Shown here: positions 13,362 to 56,926 of the stretch, piece by piece | How the letters are laid out: each line of letters opens with the position of its first letter | Position numbering within the stretch: position 1 is the first letter of the stretch | From: Candidatus Saccharimonadales bacterium | Lineage (GTDB): Bacteria > Patescibacteriota > Saccharimonadia > Saccharimonadales > 2-12-FULL-41-12 | Reading direction: 5' to 3' | DNA length: 64,000 bases | NCBI GenBank assembly: GCA_041906505.1 | Contig: JAYRJB010000007.1 | Coordinates: 18,964-82,963 of the forward strand | Position numbers and translations under genes: made by a program | Notes under the pieces: generated by a model | What the model was told of the DNA's origin: nothing | Seen by the model: the letters and a program-made list of their open reading frames with translations, nothing else | Database searches by the model: none

Positions 13362-13912
13362 GTGCTATATCTCCAGAGTTCTGAATCGGAGCCTAATTGT
13401 GACGGGATATACTCTGTAACAAGTGACTTATGGGGTATCTCAAGCTGGGTTCTTTGGTTAGGGTTACCACGATCCCAAACAGAAACTGCTAGGCTTATCT
13501 TGTTTGCAAGCGACTCAAAGCCTAAAACTTTGCGACTATTAGTAAAGCGATTGAACACATCCTCTATCATGACCCCCCTAAAACCATACTCAGCAATATA
13601 TTCCGAATGCTTGTCAGCATACGAAATATTTTTATCCGAATCTGCCTGTAGGACTACCAAATTTAGTTTTGTAAGATCTGCGACGCGTTCCGCGAGCCAG
13701 TTAGCACCATTTGGTACGCCCACCACAAAGTCTGGTGCGTCTTCAATTGCTAGCTTGCCAATTCTTTGGATGACTTTTTTTGAGAGATCTGGATTTTTAT
13801 GCAGTCGCTCAACATCAAGTTTGTTATTTGCAGCCACACCCGAAGCAAACACTGAATCTTCCCTCACAAAACATGTTTGTAAAACGGCTTCTCTGAGTTC
13901 TTTGATATCCAT
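13358..13912 (-). CDS. Phosphoribosyltransferase-fold protein with a degenerate PRPP loop (OPRTase-like)
   Basis: DFVVGVPNGANWLA and VMIEDVFNRFTNS resemble OPRTase D.V.G.ALGG.P.A and VLLVEDVITTGGS, but the TTGG loop is lost. Confidence 0.4.
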   Translation of the reverse strand: MDIKELREAVLQTCFVREDSVFASGVAANNKLDVERLHKNPDLSKKVIQRIGKLAIEDAPDFVVGVPNGANWLAERVADLTKLNLVVLQADSDKNISYADKHSEYIAEYGFRGVMIEDVFNRFTNSRKVLGFESLANKISLAVSVWDRGNPNQRTQLEIPHKSLVTEYIPSQLGSDSELWRYST

Positions 13913-14733
13913 TAGTTGTTTGCTATCTTGCTGGCTGAGCGGATAACATTCTCAAATAATGCGCAGACGGTTAATGGACCAACCCCACCCTTTGGGGGAG
14001 TCATCGTAAGATCATCACGCTTATATACCTCTGGCGCGAGATCGCCGACCGTTTTGCCATCTTCGCTTGCGGTGCCGGCATCTACCACCACCGCACCTTG
14101 CTTGATCATGTTCGAAAACAAAATGGCTGGACTTCCAGCCGCAGTAATAATGATATCTGCGTCTATACTTAACGTGTTAAGTGTTTTGGTTTGCCGGTTT
14201 GCGACTGTGAACTCATGGCCAGAATCTTTAAGTAGTTGGGCTAAAGGTTCTCCAACCAGTTTGCCTTGACCAATGATTAGGATTTTCTTGCCCCGTAAAT
14301 CAACGTTGTAACCAGCGAGCAACCACATAATTGCCATCGGCGTTGCTGGCTCAAAAATTGAACGTTTACCAAGCGCGTCAACATCTTTATTTGCGATTAC
14401 CATGTCACATATTTCATCTGTCTGACTTGGGTCACTAAGTGGCAGTTGCACAATAATTCCGTGAACCCCTGGTTCTGCATTTAATTGCGCAATGATATCT
14501 GGCGCAGCAGCTTGCGCAACGGTGTGAACTTCGACCTCGACCATGATATCGGCCCCGTAGGCCTTCTTTAGTCGTACGTACGTATTAATTACAGGATCAT
14601 CGTTAACTTGTACAATCGCAAGCTTTGGGATGATCTTATGAGCTTGCCGTAGCGTTCGTACCTGCTTTGCCTGGCGGGCTTTTATGTATCCAGCTAGTTC
14701 CGTTCCGCTCATCAATTTTTTTGCCATAGTCAT
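13912..14733 (-). CDS. folD: Bifunctional methylenetetrahydrofolate dehydrogenase/cyclohydrolase
   Basis: The ORF is trimmed to the internal Met (MTMAKKLMSGTEL...). The 138-aa upstream extension overlaps the divergent dedA gene and carries no similarity. Has the FolD NAD(P)-binding GxGxxG (ILIIGQGKLVG). Confidence 0.8.
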   Translation of the reverse strand: MTMAKKLMSGTELAGYIKARQAKQVRTLRQAHKIIPKLAIVQVNDDPVINTYVRLKKAYGADIMVEVEVHTVAQAAAPDIIAQLNAEPGVHGIIVQLPLSDPSQTDEICDMVIANKDVDALGKRSIFEPATPMAIMWLLAGYNVDLRGKKILIIGQGKLVGEPLAQLLKDSGHEFTVANRQTKTLNTLSIDADIIITAAGSPAILFSNMIKQGAVVVDAGTASEDGKTVGDLAPEVYKRDDLTMTPPKGGVGPLTVCALFENVIRSASKIANN

Positions 14734-14772
14734 AATAGTATCTTTTTGGTAACACCTCATCAAGGGAGCATA

Positions 14773-15390
14773 ATGTACTGCATGGATGTCACGGAGATCT
14801 TGCAGTCTGTGGGTTACCTTGGTATTTTTCTGTGCGTCTGTATCGAAAGCGGGATTATTTTTGGTTTGCTGGTGCCGTTGCCAGGCTTCTCGCTGCTTTT
14901 TGCGGCAGGTGTATTTGCTGCCAACGATCGCCTTAACATTTATCTTGTATTGTTGAGTGGCCTTTTGGGAGCAGTCTTGGGCTACATAATTGGATACATT
15001 ACCGGGAAACGCTACGGGAGAAGATTGTTTTACGAGTCCAGAAATAAGAGGTATTTCACTGCTGCCCAAGGAGAACGGACCGAGAAATTCATGCAAAAAC
15101 ACGGCTATATAACATTGTTTGTTGGGCGTTTTTTGCCCATTGTTCACACCGTCGCCCCCATCTTAAGCGGCGTTGCAAAAACGCCAATTGGCCCGTTTAT
15201 GATCATAAACCTGCTGGGTGCAGCAGTGTGGGTGTGTTCGGCCACATTTTTAGGGTATTTTGTTGGCGCTTCACTACCTGGAGCACAATACTACGTAGTG
15301 CCTTTTGTGGTCATCCTTGTAGTCATTCTCAACACTAGATTCGCCAGAGATTATATCAAGAGACTACTTGCCAGAATCGAATCGCTTTAA
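14773..15390 (+). CDS. DedA/SNARE-associated family membrane protein
   Basis: Start moved to the ATG at 14773, preceded by AAGGGAG with a 4-nt spacer. Typical DedA G-x-x-x-G/GRFLP signature (LFVGRFLPIVHTVAPILSGVAK). Confidence 0.75.
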   Translation: MYCMDVTEILQSVGYLGIFLCVCIESGIIFGLLVPLPGFSLLFAAGVFAANDRLNIYLVLLSGLLGAVLGYIIGYITGKRYGRRLFYESRNKRYFTAAQGERTEKFMQKHGYITLFVGRFLPIVHTVAPILSGVAKTPIGPFMIINLLGAAVWVCSATFLGYFVGASLPGAQYYVVPFVVILVVILNTRFARDYIKRLLARIESL

Positions 15391-16646
15391 GAAGCAGAAA
15401 CAAACGTGTACGCATACCCAGATCGTCCAGCACGTCCAGCACGACCAATTCGGTGAACATAGTCGTCGTATGACTGGGGCTGCGAGTAGTTGATAACGTG
15501 TGATACGTCGGCAACATCAATACCTCGGGCCGCCACGTCCGTCGCAACCAAAACTTTTACTTCGCTGTCACGAAATCTGCGGAGCGCTCGCTGTCTTTGT
15601 CCTTGAGATTTGCCTCCGTGAATGGCGTCAGCCTTAAAACCTCGATCGATGAGTTCTTTGCTGAGGCGCTCGACACTGCGCTGAGTATCATCAAAAAGCA
15701 ACACTTTCGAGACTTCGTCTTTAGTAAGGAGATCATGAAGTTGATGTAGTTTGTCTTGCGTCGTCTCGTACGCAACAATGTCTTGTTCGACATTTTTGCT
15801 TGCTGCGCTGGTACGAACAGAGATACTAACTGGGTCCTCAGAAAACTCTCGTATCAATTGATTAATTTTTGGATCAATGGTTGCCGAAAAAAACAGCGAC
15901 TGTCTTTTTGTTGCAAGTTCACCGAGAAGACTTCTGATGTCGCCAATGAATCCCATATCAAGCATTCTGTCGACTTCATCGAGGACTACGATATTAAATC
16001 GACCTAAATCTAGTGTGCGTCGTTCGACGTGATCTTTGATTCTGCCTGGTGTCCCAATAACCATACTAGGGTTAGCTTTTAGGTCGCGAATCTGAGCACC
16101 CATCGGTGAACCACCAATAAGTACCGCGCCACGAAGTCCGCTGTGTTTTGCAAAATCTCGACACGCCGCCTCAATCTGTTGAGCCAATTCACGTGTTGGA
16201 GCAATCACCAGGGCTCGAGCGGAAGAATCTGAAATTAATTTCGTTAGTATTGGTAGTGAAAAAGCCGCCGTTTTACCAGTACCTGTGTTGGCGATACCAA
16301 TAACGTCCCTGCCATCAAGAATAGGCTGGGTCGCTTCATCCTGTATTTGGGTCGGGGTAGTAAAGCCTAGTGCTTCGATATTTCTATGAAGCAGCGGATG
16401 CAAGGCAAAATCGGCAAATGTATGCTCGGCGGTATAGTGTGTTTCGGCCTGCTCTACGGCGGGACTCACGAACTTGCTTGGGTGAATATATTGTTTTTGA
16501 TTTTTTCTTCGTACATTGGTACTACGACCATTGTTCGAGTGAAAACGACGCTGTGGTCGCCTTTGTTGATATGACATAAAAATAGAATCCTTTGTCGTTA
16601 ATTTGCTTCTCATTGTTTTTGTCATGAAACCTGAGAAAATGAGCAA
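15387..16646 (-). CDS. DEAD-box ATP-dependent RNA helicase (DEVD variant)
   Basis: Q-motif region, Walker A TGTGKTAAF, DEVD, SAT and HRIGRAGRAGRSG. Basic N-terminal tail. The exact start is uncertain; Met 16646, 16625 and 16574 are all possible. Confidence 0.85.
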   Translation of the reverse strand: MLIFSGFMTKTMRSKLTTKDSIFMSYQQRRPQRRFHSNNGRSTNVRRKNQKQYIHPSKFVSPAVEQAETHYTAEHTFADFALHPLLHRNIEALGFTTPTQIQDEATQPILDGRDVIGIANTGTGKTAAFSLPILTKLISDSSARALVIAPTRELAQQIEAACRDFAKHSGLRGAVLIGGSPMGAQIRDLKANPSMVIGTPGRIKDHVERRTLDLGRFNIVVLDEVDRMLDMGFIGDIRSLLGELATKRQSLFFSATIDPKINQLIREFSEDPVSISVRTSAASKNVEQDIVAYETTQDKLHQLHDLLTKDEVSKVLLFDDTQRSVERLSKELIDRGFKADAIHGGKSQGQRQRALRRFRDSEVKVLVATDVAARGIDVADVSHVINYSQPQSYDDYVHRIGRAGRAGRSGYAYTFVSAS

Positions 16647-16699
16647 ACTAACTCGGATTCATTTGAAATACAATTGACTAAATTATAGCACAGACATAT

Positions 16700-16744
16700 A
16701 AAAAAATCAATAGCCAGGTGGGTCCATCCCTCGCCGGGCTATTG
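16700..16744 (-). terminator. Rho-independent terminator downstream of the DUF308 gene
   Basis: Minus strand: CAATAGCC...GGCTATTG 8-bp stem followed by ATTTTTTTAT. Confidence 0.55.
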
Positions 16745-16762
16745 ACGAATACCTCCCTGTAC

Positions 16763-17326
16763 TTATTTCTTATGCGTCGCTTCGAGGCTATGCTTGACGT
16801 CGAAGGATATGGCAACCATAAGTGGACCCATAATTAGTGCGTATAGCCCAAGAACCCACACAAACGCAACGCCGGCAGCAACTGATGAATTGAGCACAAT
16901 AATGCCAATTACAATCGCTGCTAGCCCAATGATGACATTGAGCGTTTTATAGGTTGCAGTTCCCTCATCAATCAACGCACTTACAATGTCGATCAACCCT
17001 CGTACGATTAGGGTAAAGCCAACTATCAAAATTAAGGTGCTAAACGTCACATTCGGATGCCGGACAAGATATACCCCAACACCGAGACCGATTAGGCCAA
17101 AAACCAGACTCAGCCACCAGTTGCTGCGATGTCTCATGCCAAGTAAGCCACCAACAATTTCAGCAACACCCCACACGAGTATAAAAGCGCTAAAAAGATA
17201 TACGAGCGTTTGCAGTGTTAGTCCTGGCCAAAAAAGTGCGGCAATACCAAACAGTATTGCTAGAACACCCTGGATAAGACCGATCCACCACAGCTCAGCT
17301 ACAGCTTTTTCTCCGTTCATGTTCAC
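16763..17326 (-). CDS. HdeD/DUF308-family membrane protein
   Basis: Repeated GxxxxxxG hydrophobic helices with W-rich ends (GIAALFWPG...VWGVAEIVGG), characteristic of DUF308. Confidence 0.5.
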   Translation of the reverse strand: MNMNGEKAVAELWWIGLIQGVLAILFGIAALFWPGLTLQTLVYLFSAFILVWGVAEIVGGLLGMRHRSNWWLSLVFGLIGLGVGVYLVRHPNVTFSTLILIVGFTLIVRGLIDIVSALIDEGTATYKTLNVIIGLAAIVIGIIVLNSSVAAGVAFVWVLGLYALIMGPLMVAISFDVKHSLEATHKK

Positions 17327-17341
17327 AAATCTCCATTAAAG

Positions 17342-17725
17342 TTAGCTGTCTTTTTTTGCGTCTCTTTGAAATGTTTTATGTATAGCAACACCTCCTCCCT
17401 TAAAATTGCGATAGATATTGACTGCCCCCGTCAACAGCAACAAACCACCTAAACCCCACCGAACTATTGGGACAGATACAATATTTAGTGATCGAAGAGT
17501 CAGAAAGAACCCCAACACAGTTAGCGGTATACCGATTTTATAGTTTCTTTGGTTTGGATCTTCAAATACTAGAATGAGGCCAGCACACAGTAGCACAAAA
17601 CAGAGCCAGAATGGCGCAACAGTAAGTTCGATTACCGCAAAAAGCAAGCACGTTCCAAGCGCAATAAGAAGCACGTCCACCACCGCTCGCACTGCTTGCA
17701 TAAACCGAACGTTTGGATGCTTCAT
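17342..17725 (-). CDS. Hypothetical membrane protein (3-4 TM helices)
   Basis: 127-aa hydrophobic ORF coupled 16 nt downstream of the next gene. Confidence 0.45.
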   Translation of the reverse strand: MKHPNVRFMQAVRAVVDVLLIALGTCLLFAVIELTVAPFWLCFVLLCAGLILVFEDPNQRNYKIGIPLTVLGFFLTLRSLNIVSVPIVRWGLGGLLLLTGAVNIYRNFKGGGVAIHKTFQRDAKKDS

Positions 17726-17764
17726 GTTAAAACCCCTTTGTCGTGACTTAAGGTTTATGTCTGT

Positions 17765-18184
17765 TTATACACCTATGAGACCAATGACCAATCCCATGAG
17801 CATTAGTGTTACAAACTCGTTGCCAACAGTAATCAGCGTTAGCTTAGCAGGCCGGCCTTCAAAAACATCGTGTGTAACAATCCGGGCGGCTGTGAGCCCT
17901 AGCCAAAGCCAAAAAGCAGTCGTCACACTATCTTGTAGAAAACTATTTTGAAAAAATTCATTCGACAGATACGCAACGTGCGCCACAACATACGCTGTAA
18001 TGAGACTCACCACAATCGTGATCACAATTGGCTTTGCCACATTTGTGTTATTTTTTGATAGATCTACCTTCGCAAGTTTTCCCCAAGTCGTACCAAATAC
18101 GGCCCGGGCATACCATATGCTGCCGACAACCAACGAGCTCGCCATAGCAGCAATTACCCCTAGAAAATTTACTTCTACGTCCAT
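17765..18184 (-). CDS. DUF1761-like small membrane protein
   Basis: 139 aa and four predicted helices. The N-terminal AAMASSLVVGSIWYARAVFG resembles the DUF1761 consensus. Confidence 0.4.
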   Translation of the reverse strand: MDVEVNFLGVIAAMASSLVVGSIWYARAVFGTTWGKLAKVDLSKNNTNVAKPIVITIVVSLITAYVVAHVAYLSNEFFQNSFLQDSVTTAFWLWLGLTAARIVTHDVFEGRPAKLTLITVGNEFVTLMLMGLVIGLIGV

Positions 18185-18297
18185 AGTTTCCCTCCTTATT
18201 GATTTGAATTATATACCAATTTTTCTACAAATAAACTGCTTCTTTGCATACATTCACGTTGCTCTCTGTTTGTTGACGAAAGAGTTATAATTGAAGC

Positions 18298-18885
18298 ATG
18301 AGTAAAAATAGACATTTGGTAAAAAATAAAATTCTGTGGTGGGTTTTGGCGGGCGGTTCGCTGGTTGGATTACTGGCGTCGTTTATTCAGACAATTGAAC
18401 GAATTAACTACGCAAAAAACCCGACCGTGCCACTCAAGTGCGACGTTAGTGCAATTTTTAGTTGTAGTAACGTATTCGACGCCTGGCAGTCATCAGTCTT
18501 TGGATTCTCCAACTCGCTAATGTGTATTGTGTTTTTTTCGATTACGCTTGGGGTAGCCTTCGCGGGAGCAACGAGCGGGGAAATTCGCAGAACATTAAGG
18601 CTATGGGTTCACTTTTTCGCCGTTTTCTTTCTCGGCTTTGGAGCGTGGTATTTATGGCAAAGTGCCTACGAGATTGGATATATCTGCATTTTTTGCGCCG
18701 CGTGTTACGGTGCAGTGATTGCGATGAACTGGGCCTGGCTCAGACTCAATGCTCGAGACATCTTTCGGTCAAAGTCCGCAACGTCTCGTTGGCAACGAAT
18801 CGAATCCAGTGGCGCTGACACTTTTGGATGGATTCTCTGGGCAGTCATAATTGCAACCATGGTTGCCGCACCATTCATCAACTAG
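18298..18885 (+). CDS. Vitamin K epoxide reductase (VKOR)-family thiol oxidoreductase
   Basis: Loop cysteine pair CDVSAIFSC followed by an in-membrane CxxC (YICIFCAACYG). About 5 TM helices. Confidence 0.75.
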   Translation: MSKNRHLVKNKILWWVLAGGSLVGLLASFIQTIERINYAKNPTVPLKCDVSAIFSCSNVFDAWQSSVFGFSNSLMCIVFFSITLGVAFAGATSGEIRRTLRLWVHFFAVFFLGFGAWYLWQSAYEIGYICIFCAACYGAVIAMNWAWLRLNARDIFRSKSATSRWQRIESSGADTFGWILWAVIIATMVAAPFIN

Positions 18886-18932
18886 TTAAAAGGTGTTTCT
18901 TGGTTTTAGGCCTTTTCTCGGGGAACCCAGAA

Positions 18933-19151
18933 CTATTCTTTTTTAGTGATCTTGATCGCCGTTTTGGCGCTCAACCCAAGCAAAAACGGGTAAATAACAA
19001 ACAACCACAACGAATCAAGAATATTTGGAATCCATGGGTCTGATAAGAATAAATACCAGCTCTCAAGACCCAGAATTGACCCAACAATATTAACAATAAT
19101 TGCCAGCGCTAGAATAATTATGCCAACAACAAAGGTGTTCATGTTCATCAT
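18933..19151 (-). CDS. Small two-TM membrane protein (72 aa), 87 nt downstream of heliorhodopsin
   Basis: Two hydrophobic helices on the same strand directly after the rhodopsin gene. No known domain. Confidence 0.4.
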   Translation of the reverse strand: MMNMNTFVVGIIILALAIIVNIVGSILGLESWYLFLSDPWIPNILDSLWLFVIYPFLLGLSAKTAIKITKKE

Positions 19152-19238
19152 ATTGTTTGCCTAATACTATAAATTGCAACCACCCTTTTCTTGGTTTTTA
19201 CTATAACAAACATGGCCTAACAAATGTATCTCGTCCGA

Positions 19239-20003
19239 CTAAGGTCGAAGAGTGCCGCCAAAAACTTGCCAAGCAAGAAGGGATTTTGCAACCAAGCTCA
19301 AGATAATGTATGCACGCTCACCGTACAAATAATCCTTCCAGGGGCCAACTTTTTTATACTGAAGCACCATGTTTAGAGCAAAGCAACTAAAGAAAATGAA
19401 GATGGAAACAAATATCCAATACACAAAGGTGGGAGCTCGACTGCCGTTTTCGGCGCCCAACCACATGTAAAGCGCAATCACAAGCCACGGTATAATCCCC
19501 GCAAAACACCCGATGTAGTAACTCAGCCAATTCGTTGTCTTGGTGGTCTGATTGTGGACCTCCATTACGAGTCCCATGAGGTTCATAACTGATGTAAGAA
19601 CAAATATCATTAGCAAACTACTTAGGTCGTACACTCCCACGAGCGCTGCGATCGCAACCATCATCACACTTGCAGAAATCGAATATTCAACCCACCTTAA
19701 TCTATTGATTCCTAGTTTTAGTTCTTTTTCGTATCGCCGATTGTAGCTTGTGGCAATTACAAAATGAAAAATTGCTGAAAGAAAGAAAAACGCTGCAATC
19801 AACCATGGCAACTCAACGCTAAACAAAGCCGTCGTAGTTGGCTGCAGCGACTGAGTTTGTTCATTAAAGAAAAGATAGGTACCAGAAACTGGTATCTCAA
19901 ACGACTTGCTTATTAGGAGGACGATTATGCCCTGCGCGAGGTGCAAAAACCCCGCAATGATGTTCAGCTGTTTTAGTTTTTGCGATGTTATTTTTCTTGC
20001 CAT
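19239..20003 (-). CDS. Heliorhodopsin (inverted-topology 7-TM retinal protein)
   Basis: 254 aa. Near-identity to heliorhodopsin hallmarks recalled from HeR 48C12: IAGFLHLAQ, FFLSAIFHF, RLRWVEYSISASVMMVAIA (counterion Glu), GCFAGIIPW, and LQYKKVGPWKDYLYGERAYIILSLVAKSLLAWQVFGG with the Schiff-base Lys in SLVAKS. Confidence 0.9.
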   Translation of the reverse strand: MARKITSQKLKQLNIIAGFLHLAQGIIVLLISKSFEIPVSGTYLFFNEQTQSLQPTTTALFSVELPWLIAAFFFLSAIFHFVIATSYNRRYEKELKLGINRLRWVEYSISASVMMVAIAALVGVYDLSSLLMIFVLTSVMNLMGLVMEVHNQTTKTTNWLSYYIGCFAGIIPWLVIALYMWLGAENGSRAPTFVYWIFVSIFIFFSCFALNMVLQYKKVGPWKDYLYGERAYIILSLVAKSLLAWQVFGGTLRP

Positions 20004-20071
20004 ATCTCGACTATAACATAAGTACTTTTCATAAAACCAAAATGTGCTTCCACCTAAGAACGGGATGGCAG

Positions 20072-21799
20072 CTAGCGAACCATGTCAGCTATTTTCCAGA
20101 CCTTATCCGCCGCTTTGCCCTCAAATGATCTGGCGATGGTACGAGCAATTCTGGTCACATTCGCGGTAGTTGTAAACTCCCTGTCATTAAACTCTATAGC
20201 CGCCCGTTCACTCGAGGCCCGCATTCGTGCATACTCCTTAGGATCGCTCATAAGCGCTGAGATAATTTCGGCGCCACGCTGCATGTCGTGATCTCGTTTC
20301 TGGTAGTCCAGTACATAGCCCGAAACACCTTCCTGCACTTGTAGCGGCATTCCTCCGTTGTTAAAAACAACCGCTGGAACACCGTGGCGAATCCAGTCGC
20401 TAATTCGCGTTTCGCAACCCTCTGCCTCAGAGGTTTGGACGCCAACAATTTGCGCTGTGTCGCTTCCGTCAAGCCCACCGGTTGGATACATCAAGGCGTT
20501 CATAGCGGTGTAATTATGTCGCAGTCTCATTATCACAATGTCTTCGCTGTCTTCAGAAAATTGCTCCCGCCTAAGACGAAGCATCTCTTCGTACATTGGC
20601 ACCCCGCTTGGATCGTCAACTGAACCATTACCGACCAACACTACTTGTGGTAATTCGTCAGCCTCGTATCCTCTCTGACGAAGAAGCTTTCGTACATCAC
20701 AACCCAACTTCATTGCTTTGTCCATTCCTTTGGATTCGTCAAATCGGGCAACCAGAACAATTCGTTTGCGATTCATGTCAATCCTAGACTGAATATCTTC
20801 CTCTCGCCCTTCGGCGCGAAGTATGGCGTTTTTGGCATCAATTTCAGTATTGATAAATTGCAGTCCTTCATGAATTTCTGAAGGGTTAAGCCTTCGATTT
20901 AGATCGTCAAACGGATCGGTTGTTGCCGGACCAAAATAGGTTTTTTCTGACATACCTGGGTGAATAAACTGCTCTACTGGATGCGCGATGACAGCATCAA
21001 CGTCCTGGATACCACATTGTTGCAAAATATAAGCTGCCACACCTCCTTGTGGCGTCGCGGGATCTGCCATCAGCTCAGCGTGAGTATCAATGTGGTTTCT
21101 CCACAGCCATTTACTGCTTGGCTTCACTGCTTCAGCTAAAAGGGTTTTTAAGGGCGCTGGCTGGGGGTCATCAATGAAAACCACGTCCGCTCGTTGAATT
21201 ACTTCCTGCCGGGACAACACGGCTGCATTCTGAGCATTCCAACTCCAGTGAATGCTCTTATCTTCTTCTGTTAAGAACTCATCTGGTGCGGTACGACGTT
21301 GAGAAATATTATGCATTTTCTTGGTGACCACGAAGGGGTCTGGATCATTTTCACTGCCCCGGCCTTGCATGACATACCAATGGGCGTCAACTCCCAACAA
21401 CTTCAGCATATGGACCACTGGTGGACGCAACATTGCAACCCCACCACCCTCCATTGTTGGATTAATAAACACTATCGACTTTCCGTGAAGTTTCTCAACA
21501 GTGGACACAAGCAACTCCCAATCCTGTTTCGGTGTCAGCTGACGATAATCCTCTAATGAAACATCACTGTCAACCGTTACTTCGTAGGTGTGCTCGTTGC
21601 GGCTAAGGCGATAGACTTCATTGCTTCTGTCAGCCTGCGTTTCTTGTTCCTGTGTACAATCTTGATCCGTAACCAGTCTACCTATTGCACCTGCAACACC
21701 GTTTATCGGTAAATTTTGTTCCTGCTCTTCTGTCAAACACCTCATTAATGGATCAATTTCCTGGAATAATGCTTGGTTACCGTCTAATGGGTGTGACAT
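20072..21799 (-). CDS. GT4-family retaining glycosyltransferase with ~100-aa N-terminal extension (trehalose synthase TreT-like)
   Basis: NPTMEGGGVAMLRP nucleotide-sugar-binding glycine loop typical of TreT/sucrose-synthase-like GT-B enzymes. C-terminal GT1 half. The closest call is by motif only. Confidence 0.5.
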   Translation of the reverse strand: MSHPLDGNQALFQEIDPLMRCLTEEQEQNLPINGVAGAIGRLVTDQDCTQEQETQADRSNEVYRLSRNEHTYEVTVDSDVSLEDYRQLTPKQDWELLVSTVEKLHGKSIVFINPTMEGGGVAMLRPPVVHMLKLLGVDAHWYVMQGRGSENDPDPFVVTKKMHNISQRRTAPDEFLTEEDKSIHWSWNAQNAAVLSRQEVIQRADVVFIDDPQPAPLKTLLAEAVKPSSKWLWRNHIDTHAELMADPATPQGGVAAYILQQCGIQDVDAVIAHPVEQFIHPGMSEKTYFGPATTDPFDDLNRRLNPSEIHEGLQFINTEIDAKNAILRAEGREEDIQSRIDMNRKRIVLVARFDESKGMDKAMKLGCDVRKLLRQRGYEADELPQVVLVGNGSVDDPSGVPMYEEMLRLRREQFSEDSEDIVIMRLRHNYTAMNALMYPTGGLDGSDTAQIVGVQTSEAEGCETRISDWIRHGVPAVVFNNGGMPLQVQEGVSGYVLDYQKRDHDMQRGAEIISALMSDPKEYARMRASSERAAIEFNDREFTTTANVTRIARTIARSFEGKAADKVWKIADMVR

Positions 21800-21920
21800 A
21801 TTGTTGCCGTTTTGGTCTTTGTTTGGTTGTTTACATGTTTATTTTTGCTTTCGTACCACTAATTATACGACTATTGTCAATAGCACTACAAAAAAGTTGT
21901 ATATTTACTTGCACAAATAC

Positions 21921-21936
21921 TGTAACGAGTGTTACA
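21921..21936. promoter_or_regulatory. TetR-type operator 1: perfect palindrome TGTAACGAGTGTTACA
   Basis: 16-bp inverted repeat TGTAAC-GAGT-GTTACA in the divergent intergenic region. Confidence 0.7.
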
Positions 21937-21943
21937 TTATGTT

Positions 21944-21959
21944 TGTAACGAGTGTTACA
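21944..21959. promoter_or_regulatory. TetR-type operator 2: identical palindrome TGTAACGAGTGTTACA, 5 nt before the tetR ATG
   Basis: Second identical copy, 23 bp centre-to-centre from operator 1 (about two helical turns). Confidence 0.7.
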
Positions 21960-21964
21960 AAATT

Positions 21965-22558
21965 ATGACAATAACAACCCGCCAGACCATCCTAACTACA
22001 TCAAAACAACTCTTTGCACGCCATGGGTATGAAGGGTTCTCTATGCGTACTCTTTCTAGTCAAAGTGGTGTTGGATTGTCTAGTGTGTACCACTTCTTCT
22101 CTGATAAGAACGAGATTCTAAAGGAACTTTTTGACAAAACCAACACCGAACTAGGAGAAGCCCGCAAAAAGCTTCCTAAAAAAACCTCTGCCAGCGACAT
22201 GCTGCTACAGAGAATCGTGTTTCAATTTCAGCACATCGAGGACGTAGTTTTTGTACTAAAATACTATCTCCACTTCCGGCCAAAGTTCCTAAAGGTTGAT
22301 TCTGGCTATATTCCAAAAAAAGGCTATCTACATATCGAAGAAGTGCTCCAAGTTGGCGTACGAACAAAAGAGTTCACGATAGACCCTTCCGAGATTGATG
22401 AGCAAGCAAAGATTATCACCCACGCCATCAACGGATTTCTGCTCGAGTACTATCCAAAAACCCTTCGGGGACACGAGCTTACCACAGTCGCCAGACCAAT
22501 CCACGCGTTTCTGCTTCGCAGCTTAACCAATAAGGAGGTTGTTATGAGAAAGCAATAA
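21965..22558 (+). CDS. TetR/AcrR-family transcriptional regulator
   Basis: Start moved to the ATG at 21965 (MTITTRQTIL...). HTH is TSKQLFARHGYEGFSMRTLSSQSGVGLSSVYHFF. Confidence 0.85.
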   Translation: MTITTRQTILTTSKQLFARHGYEGFSMRTLSSQSGVGLSSVYHFFSDKNEILKELFDKTNTELGEARKKLPKKTSASDMLLQRIVFQFQHIEDVVFVLKYYLHFRPKFLKVDSGYIPKKGYLHIEEVLQVGVRTKEFTIDPSEIDEQAKIITHAINGFLLEYYPKTLRGHELTTVARPIHAFLLRSLTNKEVVMRKQ

Positions 22559-22605: not shown

Positions 22606-23184
22606 ATGGAAAAGAGTAAATCAACAGGACTTATCATCGGCCTCGTTGCCTTAGTTGTAATCGTAGGTGGTGTGCTTTGGGCAGTAAATCGAGACGATAA
22701 TAAAAAAACCGAAACAACAACTCAATCGCAACAGACACAAACTACCGAGAAGAAAGCAACCGCTAATATTGTGGTGTTGGCCTCGGACACACCAACACTT
22801 TCAACCCTTGTTACAGCGGTTAAGGCAGCAAATTTGGTTGAGACCCTCCAAGGCACTGGTCCATTCACCGTGTTTGCACCAACCAACAGCGCATTTGAAG
22901 CTTTGCCTGCCGGCACGCTTGATAATCTGTTGAAGCCAGAAAACGTAGAACAACTCAAGTCGATTTTGACCTATCACGTGGTCTCTGGAAAAGTAATGGC
23001 CGCTGATCTTAAGGACGGTCAAGAAATTACCACTGTTCAAGGTGGAAAACTCGTCGTAAAGATAACTGACGGAAAGGTCTATCTTGTTGATGCGAAGGGT
23101 AACCAAGTGATGGTTGAAAAAGCAGATGTCGATGCCAGTAACGGCGTTGTACATATAATAAACGGGGTACTGCTTCCTCAGTAA
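22606..23184 (+). CDS. Fasciclin (FAS1)-domain protein, N-terminal membrane anchor
   Basis: TLVTAVKAANLVETL...FTVFAPTNSAFEALP...NLLKPENVEQLKSILTYHVV are FAS1 H1/H2 motifs. TM helix LIIGLVALVVIVGGVLWAV. SD AAGGGAGAA upstream. Confidence 0.85.
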   Translation: MEKSKSTGLIIGLVALVVIVGGVLWAVNRDDNKKTETTTQSQQTQTTEKKATANIVVLASDTPTLSTLVTAVKAANLVETLQGTGPFTVFAPTNSAFEALPAGTLDNLLKPENVEQLKSILTYHVVSGKVMAADLKDGQEITTVQGGKLVVKITDGKVYLVDAKGNQVMVEKADVDASNGVVHIINGVLLPQ

Positions 23185-30174: not shown

Positions 30175-30350
30175 ATTATTCCGCTTGATGTATGCCGACG
30201 AACACCCGCAAAGGTTATTGCTTTATTGTAACCGAACAAAAACCCAAAGGCCATCGCCGAACCCCCAATATTACACAGTGGCATTTTCTCTCAATATCAA
30301 GGATTATTTTTTGTTGCCAGATTTGTCATATGTGGTATATTTATGGTGTT

Positions 30351-31871
30351 ATGTTGAATACCAACGAAAAGATCGGTCAACTAATTTATCAAATTAGGCA
30401 AGAACGAGGACTTACCCAAGCCGAGTTTGCGCGGCGACTTGGAACATCTCAGAGTGCAGTCAATCGGATCGAAAAGGGACGACAAAACTTGAGCCTCGAA
30501 ACCCTTGGGCGGATAAGTGACGTGCTGAACAAACAGATTATCTCTCTTGGTGGTGGCGCCGTAAACCTAAGAATTGAGGGCGGACACGAACTTTCTGGCA
30601 GCATTGAAACCAAAGTATCGAAGAACGCTGCTGTTTGCCTCTTGTTTGCGGCGCTTTTGAATAAAGGCACAACTAGGCTCAAGCGCATGCCACGAATCGA
30701 AGAAGTTAATCGCCTTATCGAAGTACTTACTAGCATCGGGGTAAAAGTCCGATGGATGGCTGGCAATGATTTGGAGATCCGACCACCAGAAAAATTAGAT
30801 CTTTCCAGCATTGACGCCCAGGCCGCCCGTAAAACCCGGAGCGTAATAATGATGTTTGGGCCGCTAATTCATCTGTTTAATGACTTCAAGATACCTTATG
30901 CGGGTGGCTGCAAGCTCGGAACCCGCACCGTACAACCCCATTTGTTTGCCCTCGAAGAGTTTGGGGTCAACATTGTTGCAAAAACCGGCTACTACCACGT
31001 AAGTGTAGAGCACAAAACGCCATCCCACGTAGTCCTCTACGAGTCTGGAGACACCACCACAGAAAATGTGTTGATGGCTACCGCGAGACACGACAAAGAA
31101 GTCACAATCAAAATGGCTAGCGCCAACTACATGGTCCAAGATCTCTGTTACTTCCTAAAGAAGCTCGGGGTTAAGATCGAAGGAATTGGTACCAGCACAC
31201 TCAAAGTGACCGGCGTAAAACACATCAAAAAGAACGTGACTTACTATCCAACCGAAGATCCGATCGAATCAATGACATTTATTGCTGCAGCGGTCACAAC
31301 AAATTCTTCGATCACCGTCAAGCGCGCCCCGCTAGACTTCGTTGAGCTTGAGCTGCTAAAACTCAAAAAAATGGGGCTAAAAGTTGATATGAGCAAGTCC
31401 TACAAAGCCGCGAATGGGCACGCAGACTTGGTCGACATCACCGTTCATAAACACAACGGCAAGCTGACCGCGCTTGACGAAAAAATTTACGCCCGCCCCT
31501 ACCCAGGCCTTAACATTGATAACTTGCCCTATTTTGTACCGATCGCCGCCGTTGCAAAGGGACGAACACTTATTCATGACTGGGTGTACGAAGAGCGTGC
31601 TATTTATTATACCGAGCTGAGAAAGCTCGGGGTCAACGTTACCCTTGCTGATCCTCATAGAGCTTTCATTGACGGACCAACTCGTTGGCGAGTCGCCGAC
31701 ATTGTGTGCCCTCCCGCACTTCGGCCGGCCGTACTCTTACTTATTGGTATGTTAGCCGCAAATGGTACTTCAATGCTGAGAAATGTCTACTCGATAAATC
31801 GTGGCTATGAATATCTTGCGGAGCGCTTAAATGATCTGGGTGCCAAAATTACCATCTTGCATGACATATAG
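30351..31871 (+). CDS. murA: XRE-HTH domain fused in-frame to UDP-N-acetylglucosamine 1-carboxyvinyltransferase
   Basis: N-terminal IGQLIYQIRQERGLTQAEFARRLGTSQSAVNRIEKGRQNLSLETLGRISDVL (Cro/C1 HTH). It runs directly, with no stop and no internal Met, into the MurA N-terminus VSKNAAVCLLFAALL. Catalytic Cys in AGGCKLGTRTV. C-terminal SINRGYEYLAERL. Confidence 0.8.
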   Translation: MLNTNEKIGQLIYQIRQERGLTQAEFARRLGTSQSAVNRIEKGRQNLSLETLGRISDVLNKQIISLGGGAVNLRIEGGHELSGSIETKVSKNAAVCLLFAALLNKGTTRLKRMPRIEEVNRLIEVLTSIGVKVRWMAGNDLEIRPPEKLDLSSIDAQAARKTRSVIMMFGPLIHLFNDFKIPYAGGCKLGTRTVQPHLFALEEFGVNIVAKTGYYHVSVEHKTPSHVVLYESGDTTTENVLMATARHDKEVTIKMASANYMVQDLCYFLKKLGVKIEGIGTSTLKVTGVKHIKKNVTYYPTEDPIESMTFIAAAVTTNSSITVKRAPLDFVELELLKLKKMGLKVDMSKSYKAANGHADLVDITVHKHNGKLTALDEKIYARPYPGLNIDNLPYFVPIAAVAKGRTLIHDWVYEERAIYYTELRKLGVNVTLADPHRAFIDGPTRWRVADIVCPPALRPAVLLLIGMLAANGTSMLRNVYSINRGYEYLAERLNDLGAKITILHDI

Positions 31872-35421: not shown

Positions 35422-36276
35422 CTATGGAAGAAGGCTATCCAAAGATATCATCATGGAAAACCCAAGCAAAACTATGAGAGAGACACCAAACATTTTTCGT
35501 GCCCATTTTGTGTCGTTTGTTGTGTGAAATTGTTTTGCGCCAACGTAAAACCATATGAGGCCTAGTCCACAGACCACGAACAAGTACGTGTACCCCGTAT
35601 AGTCAAACAGGGTAAGAAGTGAGGCCGCCCCTATAAATGCCGCGACATAATAAAGTATCTGTCGCTTAGTGGCACGCACACCTTTTACCAGCGGCAACAC
35701 CGGAATGTTTGCGTCAGAATAATCCTTGCGTCGAAAAATTGATATTGAATAAAAATGTGGCATTTGCCAACAAACTAAAATAACAAAAAGCAGTACTGCC
35801 CCAAAATCCAGTGTTGAGGTTACCGCCGTATACCCCGCCACCGGTGGGACAGCCCCCGATACGCTACCCACGAGTGTGCCAAACCGGGTCCTTCGCTTGA
35901 AAATGCTATAGACAACAACGTAGGCAAACCAACCGACTGCACCAACGAGCACTGTAGTGAAGTTGGTGAACGCTATGAGTGTTGCCATACCCAAAACACC
36001 AAGTACTGTTCCGAAAACCAGTGCACTTCTTTTGGATATTTCACCACTCACCAACGCTCTTTTTTGCGTTCTTTTCATTTTGGCGTCTATTTCTTGGTCG
36101 AGATAATTATTAAACACGCACCCAGAAGCCATAACCAACGCCGAACCAATAACTGTTTGTAGCAACAACCAGCCGTCGACCGTTCCCTTGGAAGCGAGCA
36201 AAAATCCGCCAATCACGGTAAGTAAGTTGCCTCGAATAATCCCAGGCTTTGTAAGCCGGTAATATTTATTGATCAA
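35422..36276 (-). CDS. cyoE: Protoheme IX farnesyltransferase (heme O synthase)
   Basis: UbiA-fold NNYLDQEIDAKMKRT...RALVSG motifs. 284 aa. Overlaps cyoD by 4 nt. Confidence 0.85.
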   Translation of the reverse strand: MINKYYRLTKPGIIRGNLLTVIGGFLLASKGTVDGWLLLQTVIGSALVMASGCVFNNYLDQEIDAKMKRTQKRALVSGEISKRSALVFGTVLGVLGMATLIAFTNFTTVLVGAVGWFAYVVVYSIFKRRTRFGTLVGSVSGAVPPVAGYTAVTSTLDFGAVLLFVILVCWQMPHFYSISIFRRKDYSDANIPVLPLVKGVRATKRQILYYVAAFIGAASLLTLFDYTGYTYLFVVCGLGLIWFYVGAKQFHTTNDTKWARKMFGVSLIVLLGFSMMISLDSLLP

Positions 36277-36668
36277 CGAGGATTGATTCCTTCGTCTTCG
36301 ATTATGTACGAGTCTGTCGGCTGCTCAATATGCGGGTGCCTATAGTCAAGATTGTCCATAATCCAAAGCGTGCCAGCCACCAGTACGGTTACCACCATCA
36401 CCATAAAGTACAGGGCAATAGTATTCCATCTCGGCTTTGATTCCCGGCCTAGATGAAGAAAGAAAACCACCTGAACGATAAATTGTATCATTGCCAAGAA
36501 GAGCACAACGTACATAATCGTCCGGTGCGAGGGAGAGTTATGCTGGGAGTTAATATGGGCGACGACGAGACTATACGCGATTAACGTCAACGCAATTGAA
36601 AGCACAAAACCAATCACATACGAAAACAAGCTTTGACGATCTTGCGAGGAAAGTTGCTGTTTTGCCAT
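36273..36668 (-). CDS. cyoD: Quinol oxidase subunit IV
   Basis: 131-aa three-TM protein in the canonical position between subunit III and heme O synthase. Confidence 0.65.
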   Translation of the reverse strand: MAKQQLSSQDRQSLFSYVIGFVLSIALTLIAYSLVVAHINSQHNSPSHRTIMYVVLFLAMIQFIVQVVFFLHLGRESKPRWNTIALYFMVMVVTVLVAGTLWIMDNLDYRHPHIEQPTDSYIIEDEGINPR

Positions 36669-36672
36669 ACGA

Positions 36673-37272
36673 CTACCCCGCTGCCCCTATTAAATACACG
36701 ACTGAAAAAATAAAGATCCAGATTATGTCCAAAAAGTGCCAGAACAAACTCAGCAAAATAAGTCTCTTTGTGATAGTGCTGGTTATTCCTTTTTGTATAA
36801 TGCTAACAGAGAGGACTGCCATCCAAGTCAGCCCAACGGCAATATGAAGCCCGTGGGTTCCAACAAGCGTGAAATATGATGATAAGAATGCACTGCGAGT
36901 CCAGCTATTTCCTTCCTCTACAAGATGACGGAACTCGGCGATCTCCATACCAAGAAAGGCAAGACCAAGCAAAAAAGTGACACCCAGCCAGAAAAGAACT
37001 TGGTTTTTTTGACGACGATGAAGCGCCCACATTGCAAGCCCAGCCGTAAAGCTACTCGTAAGCAGTAGTAGGGTTTCTACAAGCACATACGGCAACTCAA
37101 AGATCTCCTCTCCAGTGGGGCCACCAAAGGTGTTATTGTGGAGAACAGCATAGGTTGCAAACAAGCTCGCAAACACCACACAGTCGGTCATTAAGTATAC
37201 CCAAAAACCAAGCACCGTCTTTGAGTCGTCACTATGCGGCGATAGGGCTTGGCTCGGCAACGCTTTGCTCAT
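36673..37272 (-). CDS. cyoC: Quinol oxidase subunit III
   Basis: COX3-family motifs: [18 protein letters not shown]. Confidence 0.8.
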
Positions 37273-39257
37273 AGCTTTACTGCCCTCCTTGCCCTTTTTT
37301 GCTCAATTTTCTTTATGTCGGCTGCCGGTATCACGTACTCGGTATTTTCATCGTTTGAACGAATAATAAAGCTCACAATAACGCCGAGAAGCGATAATGC
37401 GGCAAGCCAAGGAATATGCCAAATTGCTGCAAACCCAAACAAAAAGGCAAAGCTAGCAATTATTATTCCAAAGCCAGTGTTCTTTGGCAGCGCAATATCT
37501 TGGTATGTTTGGTTTGCTGGCGAGTGTGCATGAGCCTTTTTAGCAACCCAAAATGCATCTCTTTCATGAACTACTGGCAAGTGTGCAAAGTTGTAGACTG
37601 GCGCGGGGGATGACGTCGACCACTCAAGAGTTCGGCCATCCCAGGGATCGCCGGTTGTGTCTCGGTTGTTATTCCGATCCTTTATACTCACGACAAATTG
37701 CAAAATCTGCATAACCACACCCAAACCAATAATTAGCGCACCGACCCCGGCAACAATAAATAATGACTGCCAACCCATTGATGCGTCATAGTGATCAAGC
37801 CGCCTGGTTGCCCCCATAAATCCAAGTGCATATAGTGGCAAAAACGCGGTTGCAAAACCAATGATCCAGCACCAAAACGCATACCGACCAAGTCTTTCGT
37901 TAAGCTTAAATCCAAAAACTTTCGGAAACCAGTAAGAAATGCCGGCAAAGTACCCAAACACCACACCGCCAATAACCATGTTATGAAAATGAGCAACTAA
38001 AAACAGACTGTTATGAAGCTGGAAATCTGCGGGTGGCACCGACATCATTACCCCCGTAACTCCGCCAATAGTAAATGTAACCACAAAACCCATAAACCAT
38101 AGCATTGGGGTGTTAAACCTAATTCTGCCCCGATACATTGTAAACAACCAGTTAAATACTTTTACCCCAGTAGGTATGGCAATCACCATGGTCATAATTC
38201 CAAAGAAGGCATTTACGTTTGCGCCAGCGCCCATGGTAAAGAAGTGGTGCAACCATACCACATACGACAAAATAGCTATTGCTCCAATTGCCCATACCAT
38301 CGACTTATAGCCAAAAAGTCGCTTTCCAGAAAACGTAGCAACGACCTCTGAAAAAATACCAAATGCTGGGAGAATTAGAATATATACTTCTGGATGGCCC
38401 CACGCCCAGATTAGATTGACATACATCATCGGGTTGCCACCAAAGTCTGAAGTAAAAAAGTGCATACCAAATGTTCTATCAAGCGCCAAGAGGGCTAACG
38501 ACACCGTTAAGATTGGAAAGGCAAAAATAACAAGCGACATGCTCCCGAGTACGCTCCAACAAAACACGGGCATCTTCATGAGCGACATCCCCTTGGTGCG
38601 CATTTTTAGAATCGTCACTAAGAAGTTGACCCCCGAGAGCAAGCTGCCTATTCCAGCGATCTGCACGCTCCAGATCCAATAGTCAACGCCTGGGCCAGGA
38701 CTATAGGCCAACCCCGAAAGTGGTGGATACGCCAGCCAGCCGGTAGCTGCAAATTCGCCACCTACCGCCAGTGAAATATTTATCAACACCGCCCCCGCCA
38801 CATAGAGCCAAAAGCTGACGGAATTCAAAAATGGAAACGCAACATCCCGTGCGCCAATCTGAAGCGGGACTATGAGATTAATCAGTCCGAACATAAGCCC
38901 CATGGCCACAAAAAATATCATTATGGTCCCATGTGCGGTAAACACCTGCTGAAAAGTGTCAGATGAAATGATTCCACTCGAGTCTCCCACCGAAGTTGCT
39001 TGCTGGATTCTCATCATCAGAGCATCAGCTGCACCGCGAAGCAACATCGCAATCGCAACAATAATATACATAACACCTATGCGTTTTGGGTCAAGCGACG
39101 TAAGCCACTCCTTCCAGAGCCACTTCCATTTTCTGAAATACGTAAGCGCTGCTGCTGCTCCAAGCACCGTCGCTACCATGGAAACTGTCGCTCCAACCAA
39201 CAGTTTGTCATCTAGAGGAAAAACGCTGGAGGCGGCGAAGAGCTGCAAAAAATTCAT
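37269..39257 (-). CDS. cyoB: Heme-copper quinol oxidase subunit I
   Basis: [17 protein letters not shown], and HHMF-like GHHFFTMG with His ligands. 662 aa. Confidence 0.9.
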
Positions 39258-40177
39258 CTCATCATCTCCGAATAGTGCGTTTTTCGTTCGTCATTCGGAC
39301 TATCAAGAAACGAGGGGGGTGATAAGAATTTCATTACTACTTGGTCATACAAGCCCGACTCGCTCGAAGCAAAATACATTTGTGGCACGTTCTTGCTTGG
39401 GGTCGACAATTCTTTGTACATATCTTTGTCTAAAACATTACCCAATTCCCTCACCGAGCCAACCCACTGGTCGAAATCATCTTGTGGCACCGATTCGGCA
39501 ACAAACTTCATTCCAGAAAATCCCTCGCCGCTAATATTTGCTGACGAGCCGGCAAAAGAGCCAGTTTCTGATGCCCGGAGACTCAAGCGAGTTGACATAC
39601 CGCTCATCGCATATATCTGTCCACTCAACTGAGGAATCCAGAAAGAATTCATCGGCGCATCAGCAGTTATTTCAAAATCTATCGGCCTATCTTTTGGAAT
39701 TTGCACATAATTAACCGTTGCAATATTTTCTTCTGGATAGATGAAAAGCCATTTCCACTGCAGCGCTACAACCTGCACCTTCATTGCTGCCTTATCAGAC
39801 TCGAGGGGCTTAAAAGGATCCAGGTTGTGCGTACTATTCCATGTAACAATCGACAAAATAAATATTAGCAGGATTGGCACACCCCACCACACCGCTTCCA
39901 ATGTTCGATTTCCGTCCCACTCGGGGGTGTATCGTGCGGTGTGGTTCGACGCCCGAAACTTCCAGATAATATAAAAGAACAAGGTAAATACTGGAATAAC
40001 TACTACCAATGAAAGGCCGGCCGCAAATAAAATTAGGTTGCGCTCTTTTTCGGCAATTTCTCCGCGCGTCTCTAGCAATGGAATGCTGTGTTTCTGAGAA
40101 AGAAACACTATTAGACCCACCAAACAGACAACGTAAAGCAGTGCGACTCCAACTCCAAAAAACTTTCTCATACACAC
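39254..40177 (-). CDS. cyoA: Quinol oxidase subunit II (no CuA cysteine ligands)
   Basis: Two N-terminal TM helices plus a cupredoxin-like domain lacking the CxxxC CuA motif. This argues for a quinol oxidase rather than a cytochrome c oxidase. Confidence 0.8.
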
Positions 40178-52487: not shown

Positions 52488-52596
52488 ACGCACCTCCAAT
52501 GTGAGAATATTATTAGGCTATGCGGCTAGTATAGCACTCGGTTCTCATATATTTACGCTTGTGCTTATTTGATTTACACTACTAAACTAAGTGGTT

Positions 52597-53181: not shown

Positions 53182-53247
53182 CAGGCGCTAAGAAGTCACA
53201 GCACTCGACATCACGCTTGTGTTTTTCATGTATACTACATAATAACT

Positions 53248-55065: not shown

Positions 55066-55073
55066 AAAAACAC

Positions 55074-56288: not shown

Positions 56289-56323
56289 GGACCACGTCCT
56301 CTTAAAAAATGAGCACAAAGTGC

Positions 56324-56897: not shown

Positions 56898-56926
56898 ATT
56901 GTAGTATCTACACTAAAGTTTTAATC

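Follow-up and report, generated by a model that had tools for sequence, protein, structure and literature searches.

A canonical heliorhodopsin gene in a Saccharibacteria genome, very probably self-contained and in largely incidental company

Introduction

Heliorhodopsins (HeRs) are viewed as regulatory or sensory rhodopsins (PMC8612252, PMC11109279). A 64,000-nt stretch of DNA from a Candidatus Saccharimonadales bacterium (GenBank assembly GCA_041906505.1, contig JAYRJB010000007.1, positions 18,964 to 82,963 of the forward strand), here called the window and numbered from its first letter, contains an open reading frame (ORF) with the appearance of an HeR gene. It is located between the genes of a GT4-type glycosyltransferase and a small membrane protein of the DUF7672 family, and a divergent tetR gene follows beyond the glycosyltransferase gene. 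This locus raises two questions: Is the ORF a genuine HeR, and do its neighbours reveal what the protein does? An earlier sequence-only reading had recognized HeR hallmarks in the ORF and regarded glycosyltransferase, small membrane protein and repressor as a functional lead. Our comparative analysis bears out the first claim and finds little to sustain the second. We consider it very probable that the window carries a canonical Saccharibacteria HeR, dependent on external retinal and encoded by a self-contained gene whose neighbours are largely incidental.

Identity and key residues of the heliorhodopsin

Judged by its sequence, the ORF at 19239-20003 (-) is beyond doubt a full-length canonical HeR. 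It matches Pfam family PF18761 over the entire profile (positions 1-242 of 242; 328.4 bits, cut-off 26.7, E=3e-98) and the NCBIfam equivalog NF038020 'heliorhodopsin HeR' (334.4 bits, cut-off 100). The best solved structure is 6is6 (E=2.8e-81), the HeR of the Thermoplasmatales archaeon SG8-52-1 (TaHeR; also entry 7u55), with 54.9% identity over 246 residues. These matches confirm the hallmarks that had been read from the sequence.

The key residues were checked in an alignment of 120 close homologues with TaHeR and the window HeR (122 sequences). The counterion Glu E106 in transmembrane helix (TM) 3 (RWxEYS) aligns with TaHeR E108 and is invariant. E108 is the residue changed in the TaHeR E108D entry 7clj, the sole difference between 7clj and 6is6 in the structure matches. 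The Schiff-base Lys K240 in TM7 belongs to the SxxxK motif S236-L-V-A-K240, whose S and K do not vary in this alignment, and corresponds to TaHeR K238. Thus, the Glu and Lys positions, for which the sequence-only reading had proposed such an alignment, are those of a characterized HeR. In total, H21, H80, R103, W104, E106, Y107, S110, N141, S236 and K240 are found in 122 of 122 sequences.

TaHeR belongs to the same length class, and equivalents of its residues E108, K238, H23, H82, S112 and S234 are all present in the window HeR. The two proteins differ in their hosts, archaeal for TaHeR and bacterial, from the candidate phyla radiation (CPR), for the window HeR. Furthermore, TaHeR Phe107 is replaced by Val105, a position occupied by Ile or Val in Saccharibacteria. 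The topology was assessed by counting Lys and Arg residues in a seven-TM frame taken from TaHeR homology, as a crude hydropathy scan fused TM3 and TM4. About 15 of these residues lie on the N-terminal side (N-terminus, TM2-3, TM4-5 and TM6-7 loops) versus 3 on the opposite side. By the positive-inside rule, this supports the inverted HeR topology with a cytoplasmic N-terminus and the C-terminus outside. Comparison with the sibling locus yielded a ratio of nonsynonymous to synonymous substitution rates (dN/dS) of 0.039, i.e. purifying selection. Every defining feature of the HeR family that a sequence can disclose is present in this protein.

Distribution and retinal supply

The closest genomic loci of the HeR belong nearly all to metagenome-assembled genomes of Candidatus Saccharibacteria/Saccharimonadales. 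The best genomic match is GCA_964573095.1 with 96% HeR identity. Many Saccharibacteria HeRs in databases are 72-96% identical to the window HeR, and some have already been named 'heliorhodopsin HeR [Candidatus Saccharibacteria bacterium]' by NCBI. More broadly, relatives are found in at least 512 species genomes of the GTDB set, and 7,697 protein clusters match at E<=1e-10. Of the 98 HeRs that a screen of CPR genomes detected, 80 belong to Saccharimonadia (Chiriac et al. 2022, PMC9166423). The window HeR shares clade, family and the absence of retinal genes with these published proteins, and nothing essential differs; only the gene order tetR / GT4 / HeR / DUF7672 is specific to the window species group.

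Where does the retinal come from? Fifty ORFs of the window, including all of about 180 aa or longer, were scanned against Pfam. The scan found glycolytic enzymes, Mur ligases, RecA/RecX, RNase Y and a histidine kinase; next to the latter is a 128-aa ORF, orthologous to a response regulator in the sibling locus. None of the 50 ORFs belongs to the CrtE/B/I/Y or Blh families, in agreement with the earlier statement that the 64 kb lack carotenoid or retinal biosynthesis genes. Rhodopsin-bearing Saccharibacteria lack blh, and their type-1 rhodopsins bind external retinal, which is taken up within 30 s (Jaffe et al., PMC9296517). As this paper relates, citing Shihoya 2019, the TaHeR host does not synthesize retinal either, and the TaHeR apoprotein captures external retinal through an opening. 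Since retinal genes are lacking locally and, according to the literature on Saccharibacteria (PMC9296517), genome-wide, the retinal must be scavenged, as had been proposed. That Saccharimonadia possess HeRs and depend on external retinal for them is already known, and the window HeR is one more member.

The neighbourhood across species

The features of the locus are compiled in Table 1. The 68-nt distance between the glycosyltransferase gene and the HeR gene on the same strand agrees with the earlier description.

Table 1. Genes and regulatory elements at the heliorhodopsin locus (window coordinates)
Feature	Position	Strand	Remarks
DUF7672 two-TM protein gene	18933..19151	-	72 aa from first ATG; 87-nt gap to HeR
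HeR-DUF7672 intergenic region	19152..19238	-	second TGTTATAGT box at 19200-19208
HeR gene	19239..20003	-	254 aa; carries RWVEYS and SLVAKSLLAW
HeR promoter-like element	20004..20021	-	extended -10 box TGTTATAGT at 20010-20018, ending 6 nt before HeR ATG
GT-B/GT4 glycosyltransferase gene, TreT-like N-terminal domain	20072..21799	-	575 aa; 68-nt gap to HeR; strain-variable
Divergent intergenic region GT4/tetR	21800..21964		promoter-like elements facing both ways
Twin putative TetR operators TGTAAC-N4-GTTACA	21921-36 and 21944-59	+	-44 and -21 from tetR ATG
tetR gene, TetR-family repressor	21965..22558	+	197 aa; first gene of tetR-fasciclin operon
Fasciclin-domain protein gene	22606..23184	+	PF02469, 133 bits; 47 nt downstream of tetR; neighbouring unit, not that of HeR

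HeR loci from 81 different species (L005-L084 and the window), each with 6-10 kb of flank on either side, were compared both by tblastn with the window neighbours and by unbiased ORF clustering. Neither approach revealed a conserved HeR neighbour in the 81 loci. The commonest neighbours are histidine kinases (12 loci), response regulators (10), ABC ATPases (9), which the ABC-2 permeases (6) accompany, and VKOR proteins (7). Two-component and redox genes are reported to be enriched near HeRs (PMC8612252), and an ABC-transporter neighbour group has been described (PMC11109279); both findings match these counts. GT4, TetR and DUF7672 are not among the ten neighbour groups of the latter study. TetR genes were encountered near other HeRs only in L009 (Ca. 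Saccharibacteria AQU-11; HeR 77% identical), where tetR is divergent, and in L110, where it lies in tandem. The local context, formerly offered as a lead to function, thus loses its basis: no neighbour is conserved, the glycosyltransferase gene varies among strains, and the operators are assigned to a tetR-fasciclin operon (see below). Its DUF7672 part retains a single, weak recurrence in L114 and is missing from 79 other Saccharibacteria loci.

Several further observations concern the surroundings of HeR genes. Among the seven loci with a nearby gene of the VKOR family (thiol oxidoreductases), several are close relatives of each other. In L040, L041, L044 and L045, the VKOR gene is divergent from HeR at a distance of 39-76 nt, and VKOR genes are also present in L009 and in the window (18298-18885). 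This proximity fits the redox-gene enrichment mentioned above. In L093 and L094 (HeR 82% identical), HeR is flanked by a type I restriction-modification system on one side and an M23 peptidase gene on the other, a context that illustrates how fast HeR surroundings change in the clade. In the window, a variable island of 6.6 kb (about 15387-21964) extends between a conserved Mur-ligase / Asp-Glu racemase / FolD block and tetR. It comprises genes for a DEAD helicase, DUF308, a 127-aa ORF, DUF1761, VKOR, DUF7672, HeR and GT4. Between FolD block and tetR, there is one gene in L108, and there are four in L111. In the stretch 13362-15147 of the window, the longest ORF called for the FolD-like gene (411 aa) is too long: its Pfam domains start at residue 146, and its relatives have 275 aa. 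On the opposite strand, a 194-aa ORF (13362-13946) corresponds to a VTT/DedA-like gene annotated in sibling loci. Farther away, the window encodes a 559-aa fusion of an N-terminal XRE-type helix-turn-helix (HTH_3) and an EPSP-synthase-family (MurA-like) domain at 30192-31871 (+). Such a fusion is also found near HeR in five other Saccharibacteria loci.

Promoter-like element and probable transcription unit

The extended -10 box in front of the HeR gene, TGTTATAGT, is present only twice in the window, here and at 19200-19208. At the same 6-nt distance from the HeR ATG, TGCTATAGT is found in the sibling and TGGTATATT in L009, and the three share the geometry TGnTAnnnT-N6-ATG. Among the HeR genes of 79 species, 44 have TAnnnT 5-8 nt ahead of the ATG, nearly always 6 nt, and 36 of these 44 boxes include the upstream TG. 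In 15 other HeR genes, a Shine-Dalgarno sequence takes the place of the box. A similar pattern was seen in 837 non-HeR genes of the same loci: TAnnnT displays a sharp peak at a distance of 6 nt (151 vs. a background of about 45), and TG-n-TAnnnT occurs there 72 times (background about 5). By these counts, TG-n-TAnnnT 6 nt before the ATG would be the general leaderless-promoter grammar of the clade. The box geometry is three times commoner at HeR than at other genes (56% vs. 18%), which suggests that HeR is, as a rule, the first gene of a transcription unit of its own. Because the extended -10 box of the window directly abuts the start codon, the HeR mRNA is probably leaderless and transcribed from its own promoter. 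With this promoter-like box in place, a three-gene operon is not needed.

Potential terminators were also considered. In the gaps between GT4, HeR and DUF7672 of the window, terminator folds are no better than those of shuffled sequences (z=+0.9 and 0.05); in L085, a hairpin after GT4 is somewhat better (z=-1.6). Scans of the region with sigma-70 and terminator consensus sequences yielded no more matches than shuffles. Leaderless transcription in Saccharibacteria was not addressed in any title or abstract returned by a quick literature search.

A strain-variable glycosyltransferase gene

The earlier designation of the upstream gene product as a TreT-like GT4 protein holds for its N-terminal domain, which matches PF21269 (N-terminal TreT_GT1 domain) with 98 bits. 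The score against the TreT equivalog NF041139 (104.8 bits) lies far below the cut-off of 775, and the match to the TreT structure 2x6q in the PDB (E=1e-23) covers residues 80-321 only. Glycos_transf_1 is slightly sub-threshold (26.0 vs. 26.4). By these matches, the protein is only a TreT-like GT-B/GT4 glycosyltransferase and not assignable as TreT.

The 575-aa gene is located between tetR and HeR in L085-L092 (including GCA_041907465.1), contigs with the identical HeR protein P0003. It is missing in L001-L005 (GCA_964573095.1 and three SRA assemblies), which otherwise have the same architecture of the HeR region. The strains without GT4 keep the tetR-proximal intergenic region up to the GT4 start, followed by ATGGTTCGCTAG and then by the HeR promoter region. 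ATGGTTCGCTAG represents the last four codons of the window GT4 gene, so that the mini-ORF ATG GTT CGC TAG is left behind (window 20072-21799 vs. L002:7930-8000 and L001:9050-9110). This remnant is closer to the GT4 allele of the window than to that of L085. Because contigs with identical HeR carry GT4 and the ATGGTTCGCTAG remnant persists, the comparison identifies a clean, precise secondary deletion of the 1.7-kb gene in L001-L005. An insertion as the cause of this difference between strains was rejected on the same grounds; GT4 may still have been inserted earlier, after the split from L009. In none of the 80 other HeR loci was GT4 found. In strains that possess the gene, purifying selection acts on it (dN/dS 0.077). 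At 1.26, its dS is roughly double the values of the adjacent genes (0.45-0.76), as would fit a variable spot subject to recombination.

Putative operators of a tetR-fasciclin operon

The tetR gene starts with the ATG at 21965, not with the GTG at 21929. The HTH of its product matches PF00440 (42.5 bits, cut-off 24; residues 21-67 of the GTG-start ORF), and all sibling strains have an intact TetR with 92% identity. A metagenome scan with TetR returned generic HTH matches only. The sequence TGTAACGAGTGTTACA is found twice upstream of tetR (21921-36 and 21944-59), and these are the sole matches to TGTAAC-N4-GTTACA in 64 kb, where 0.17 would be expected. Of the two perfect palindromic TetR-type operators claimed before, the two sites and their perfect 6-bp inverted arms stand; the 4-nt core is not palindromic.

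The divergent GT4/tetR intergenic region is nearly identical in sibling strains. On the tetR side, TTGCAC-N18-TACATT (21909-21938, +) would be the tetR promoter, and in the opposite direction, TTGTAG-N18-TATAAT (about 21862-21891, -) appears to be a promoter-like element facing GT4. The operators are located at least 30 nt upstream of the -35 of this latter element. In L009, the TetR orthologue (64% identity) is directly divergent from HeR over 88 nt, and this region carries two operators with the same 23-nt spacing.

At least 120 clusters of TetR orthologues exist in Saccharibacteria. Four orthologue loci (L108-L111), picked only for their long contigs, were inspected. Each of the four has a fasciclin-domain gene 10-140 nt behind tetR, in the same orientation, and L009 and the siblings likewise have one after tetR. 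The twin operators of L108-L111 and L009, five distant loci, lie within a conserved TTGCAy-N18-TACAyT promoter, at -46/-22 relative to the tetR ATG. The window follows this pattern. The upstream neighbours of tetR differ in all four loci: UPF0259, DsbD with thioredoxin, HeR in tandem and a divergent ABC transporter. Because twin sites and fasciclin pair recur whatever lies upstream of tetR, the operators would serve the autoregulation of a tetR-fasciclin operon whose occurrence is tied neither to HeR nor to GT4. Control of the divergent GT4 and HeR genes by TetR is possible but unsupported by these sequences.

Classical TetR/tetO units resemble this arrangement in the N-terminal TetR HTH, the two inverted-repeat operators over the repressor's promoter and the divergent gene on the opposite side. 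By contrast, the window operators lie near tetR and do not overlap the divergent promoter-like element, and the conserved partner is a downstream gene for a secreted or surface protein with a fasciclin domain instead of an efflux pump.

The small membrane protein DUF7672

The small ORF downstream of HeR matches PF24717 (DUF7672) with 45.8 bits (cut-off 27), a profile matched by all 85 members of the family. As an ORF, the 72-aa two-TM protein 87 nt from HeR is as first described. Its start is probably the third ATG (19142), since a public 69-aa form (P0001) is 100% identical and the gap in the sibling is 96 nt; the protein would then comprise 69 aa and the gap 96 nt. The conserved core of the family consists of N18, W29-Y30, Y51-P52 and L55-G56. 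DUF7672 is a small family (93 representatives of 1.84 billion), its nearest non-self representative is 46% identical, and a dN/dS of 0.135 indicates purifying selection.

In 13 of 13 related contigs of the window lineage, the DUF7672 gene directly follows HeR in the same orientation. Searches with jackhmmer and the family hidden Markov model did not find it within 10 kb on either side of HeR in 79 other Saccharibacteria loci. Including the window lineage, four DUF7672 contexts were sampled. The gene of L112/L113 (46% identity) adjoins a VTT/DedA-like gene, that of L115 resides on a contig of marine Flavobacteriaceae (diderm), and neither is accompanied by HeR. In L114, which represents an unrelated lineage, DUF7672 (40% identity) is encoded 18 nt downstream of an HeR on the same strand. 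This HeR is 57% identical to that of the window and equidistant from all HeRs compared; the contig has a GC content of 36% and shares no other neighbour with the window. HeR adjacency in two of the four lineages exceeds what one would readily expect by chance, and with so tiny a sample it suggests a low-probability lead.

Some further candidates were discarded. A match of L114 DUF7672 to Blh (PF15461, E=0.045) was dismissed as noise, as it occurred in 1 of 85 family members only. In L115, DUF7672 is preceded by a 239-aa ORF, which does not encode a rhodopsin. A viral collection scanned with the L114 HeR gave no match.

Mode of action and alternative explanations

How might this HeR work? The protein would be a seven-helix, inverted HeR, in which K240 is predicted to bind all-trans retinal as a Schiff base with E106 as the counterion. 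By homology to TaHeR and other characterized HeRs, it may act as a slow-cycling light sensor that does not pump ions. The cell would make no retinal, and the apoprotein would be loaded from the environment or a host bacterium, as for TaHeR and the type-1 rhodopsins of Saccharibacteria. The HeR message is likely to be leaderless and either monocistronic or shared with DUF7672, and the gene itself appears to be self-contained in a variable stretch between conserved gene blocks. As for the neighbours, GT4 would be dispensable, the operators would autoregulate tetR-fasciclin, and only DUF7672 seems to have a sparse recurrent link to HeR. HeR probably modulates a partner protein by direct contact, and this partner is not revealed by the locus. 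Partners that have been shown for other HeRs are, as summarized in PMC11109279 (its references 12 and 13), glutamine synthetase, photolyase and the ABC transporter OmrDE. These HeRs belong to the same family, and light-dependent binding or regulation of a partner is likely to be shared by the window HeR. Genes for ABC transporters, histidine kinases and response regulators recur near some Saccharibacteria HeRs, and a histidine kinase/response-regulator pair is located about 8 kb from the window HeR. Genes for the established partners glutamine synthetase, photolyase or OmrDE are not adjacent to it.

Some observations weigh against this reading. Read-through between GT4, HeR and DUF7672 may occur, because the terminator folds between them are not significant in the window. 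Some co-regulation by TetR is possible, since L009 and the GT4-deleted strains have tetR divergent from HeR, and L110 has the two genes in tandem. Finally, with the recurrence of DUF7672 in L114, the HeR neighbourhood is not wholly uninformative. The first two points belong to a model in which GT4, HeR and the small membrane protein form one unit or operon under the divergent TetR, so that the context would reveal the function, e.g. light-controlled glycosylation. The three genes are on the same strand with gaps of 68 and 87 nt and no strong terminator between them, and tetR is divergent from this string (directly from HeR in L009 and L001-5). This is outweighed by the precise loss of GT4 from strains with the same HeR-region architecture and its absence from L009 and 79 other HeR loci. 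In addition, the operators at -21/-44 lie inside the tetR promoter, at least 30 nt upstream of the GT4-facing -35, and they occur together with the tetR-fasciclin pair where UPF0259, DsbD/thioredoxin or an ABC transporter is upstream. HeR and DUF7672 each have their own -10-like box. The comparative data therefore largely refute the three-gene TetR-controlled operon model, which we regard as very improbable.

The recurrence in L114 belongs to another proposal, namely that HeR and DUF7672 form a two-gene module, in which DUF7672 (about 70 aa, two TMs) would, in a minority of lineages, be dedicated to HeR as a membrane accessory or signalling partner. It accounts for the immediate downstream placement on the same strand throughout the 13 contigs of the window lineage, for the L114 pair at 18 nt (HeR 57% and DUF7672 40% identical, all other neighbours different), for two of the four independent contexts sampled and for the purifying selection on DUF7672 (dN/dS 0.135). 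It has to face the negative searches, with the family model too, of the 10 kb on either side of HeR in 79 other Saccharibacteria loci, the occurrence of DUF7672 without HeR in L112/L113 and in the Flavobacteriaceae contig L115, the sample of only four contexts, and the promoter-like box and gap of about 90 nt that precede DUF7672 in the window. Hence, we rate the module as unlikely. Lastly, the lack of a retinal pathway in the window and in Saccharibacteria generally (PMC9296517) could point to a relic, i.e. an apoprotein that has either no light-dependent role or a role for which retinal is not required. This is scarcely credible: selection on HeR is strong and purifying (dN/dS 0.039), the Schiff-base Lys, the counterion Glu and the His and Ser residues of the pocket are invariant over 122 sequences, and the gene is kept in at least 512 species. 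Moreover, PMC9296517 describes how the close relative TaHeR and the type-1 rhodopsins of Saccharibacteria take only seconds to bind external retinal. The explanation that we prefer is thus the canonical, self-contained HeR gene that relies on external retinal.

Other features of the window

Two further gene clusters of this CPR genome lie outside the HeR region. At 35422-40177 (-), the window contains an operon for a cytochrome bo3-type quinol oxidase (COX2 with COX_ARM, COX1, COX3) and a UbiA-family gene, which probably encodes haem O synthase. Some environmental Saccharibacteria are reported to keep a terminal oxidase, and the operon fits this. At 52591-62463 (+), a type IV pilus cluster comprises genes for a prepilin, a PilB-like ATPase, a PilC-like platform protein and PilM as well as several ORFs that match no family. 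Such clusters are typical of episymbiotic Saccharibacteria.

Significance

The discovery value of the HeR itself is small: Saccharimonadia HeRs and their reliance on external retinal have been published, and public annotation pipelines name the protein automatically. The window neighbourhood should not be used to infer HeR function, because GT4 is strain-variable and the operators reside in a separate tetR-fasciclin operon. DUF7672 provides a cheap candidate for an HeR partner. The tetR-fasciclin operon with its conserved twin operators, the leaderless grammar, the GT4 deletion polymorphism and the sparse HeR-DUF7672 adjacency may be of modest use for the study of gene regulation in CPR bacteria. 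For the family as a whole, Saccharibacteria HeR genes appear as self-contained, probably leaderless single-gene units in changing contexts, which fits the view of HeR as a 'promiscuous sensor'.

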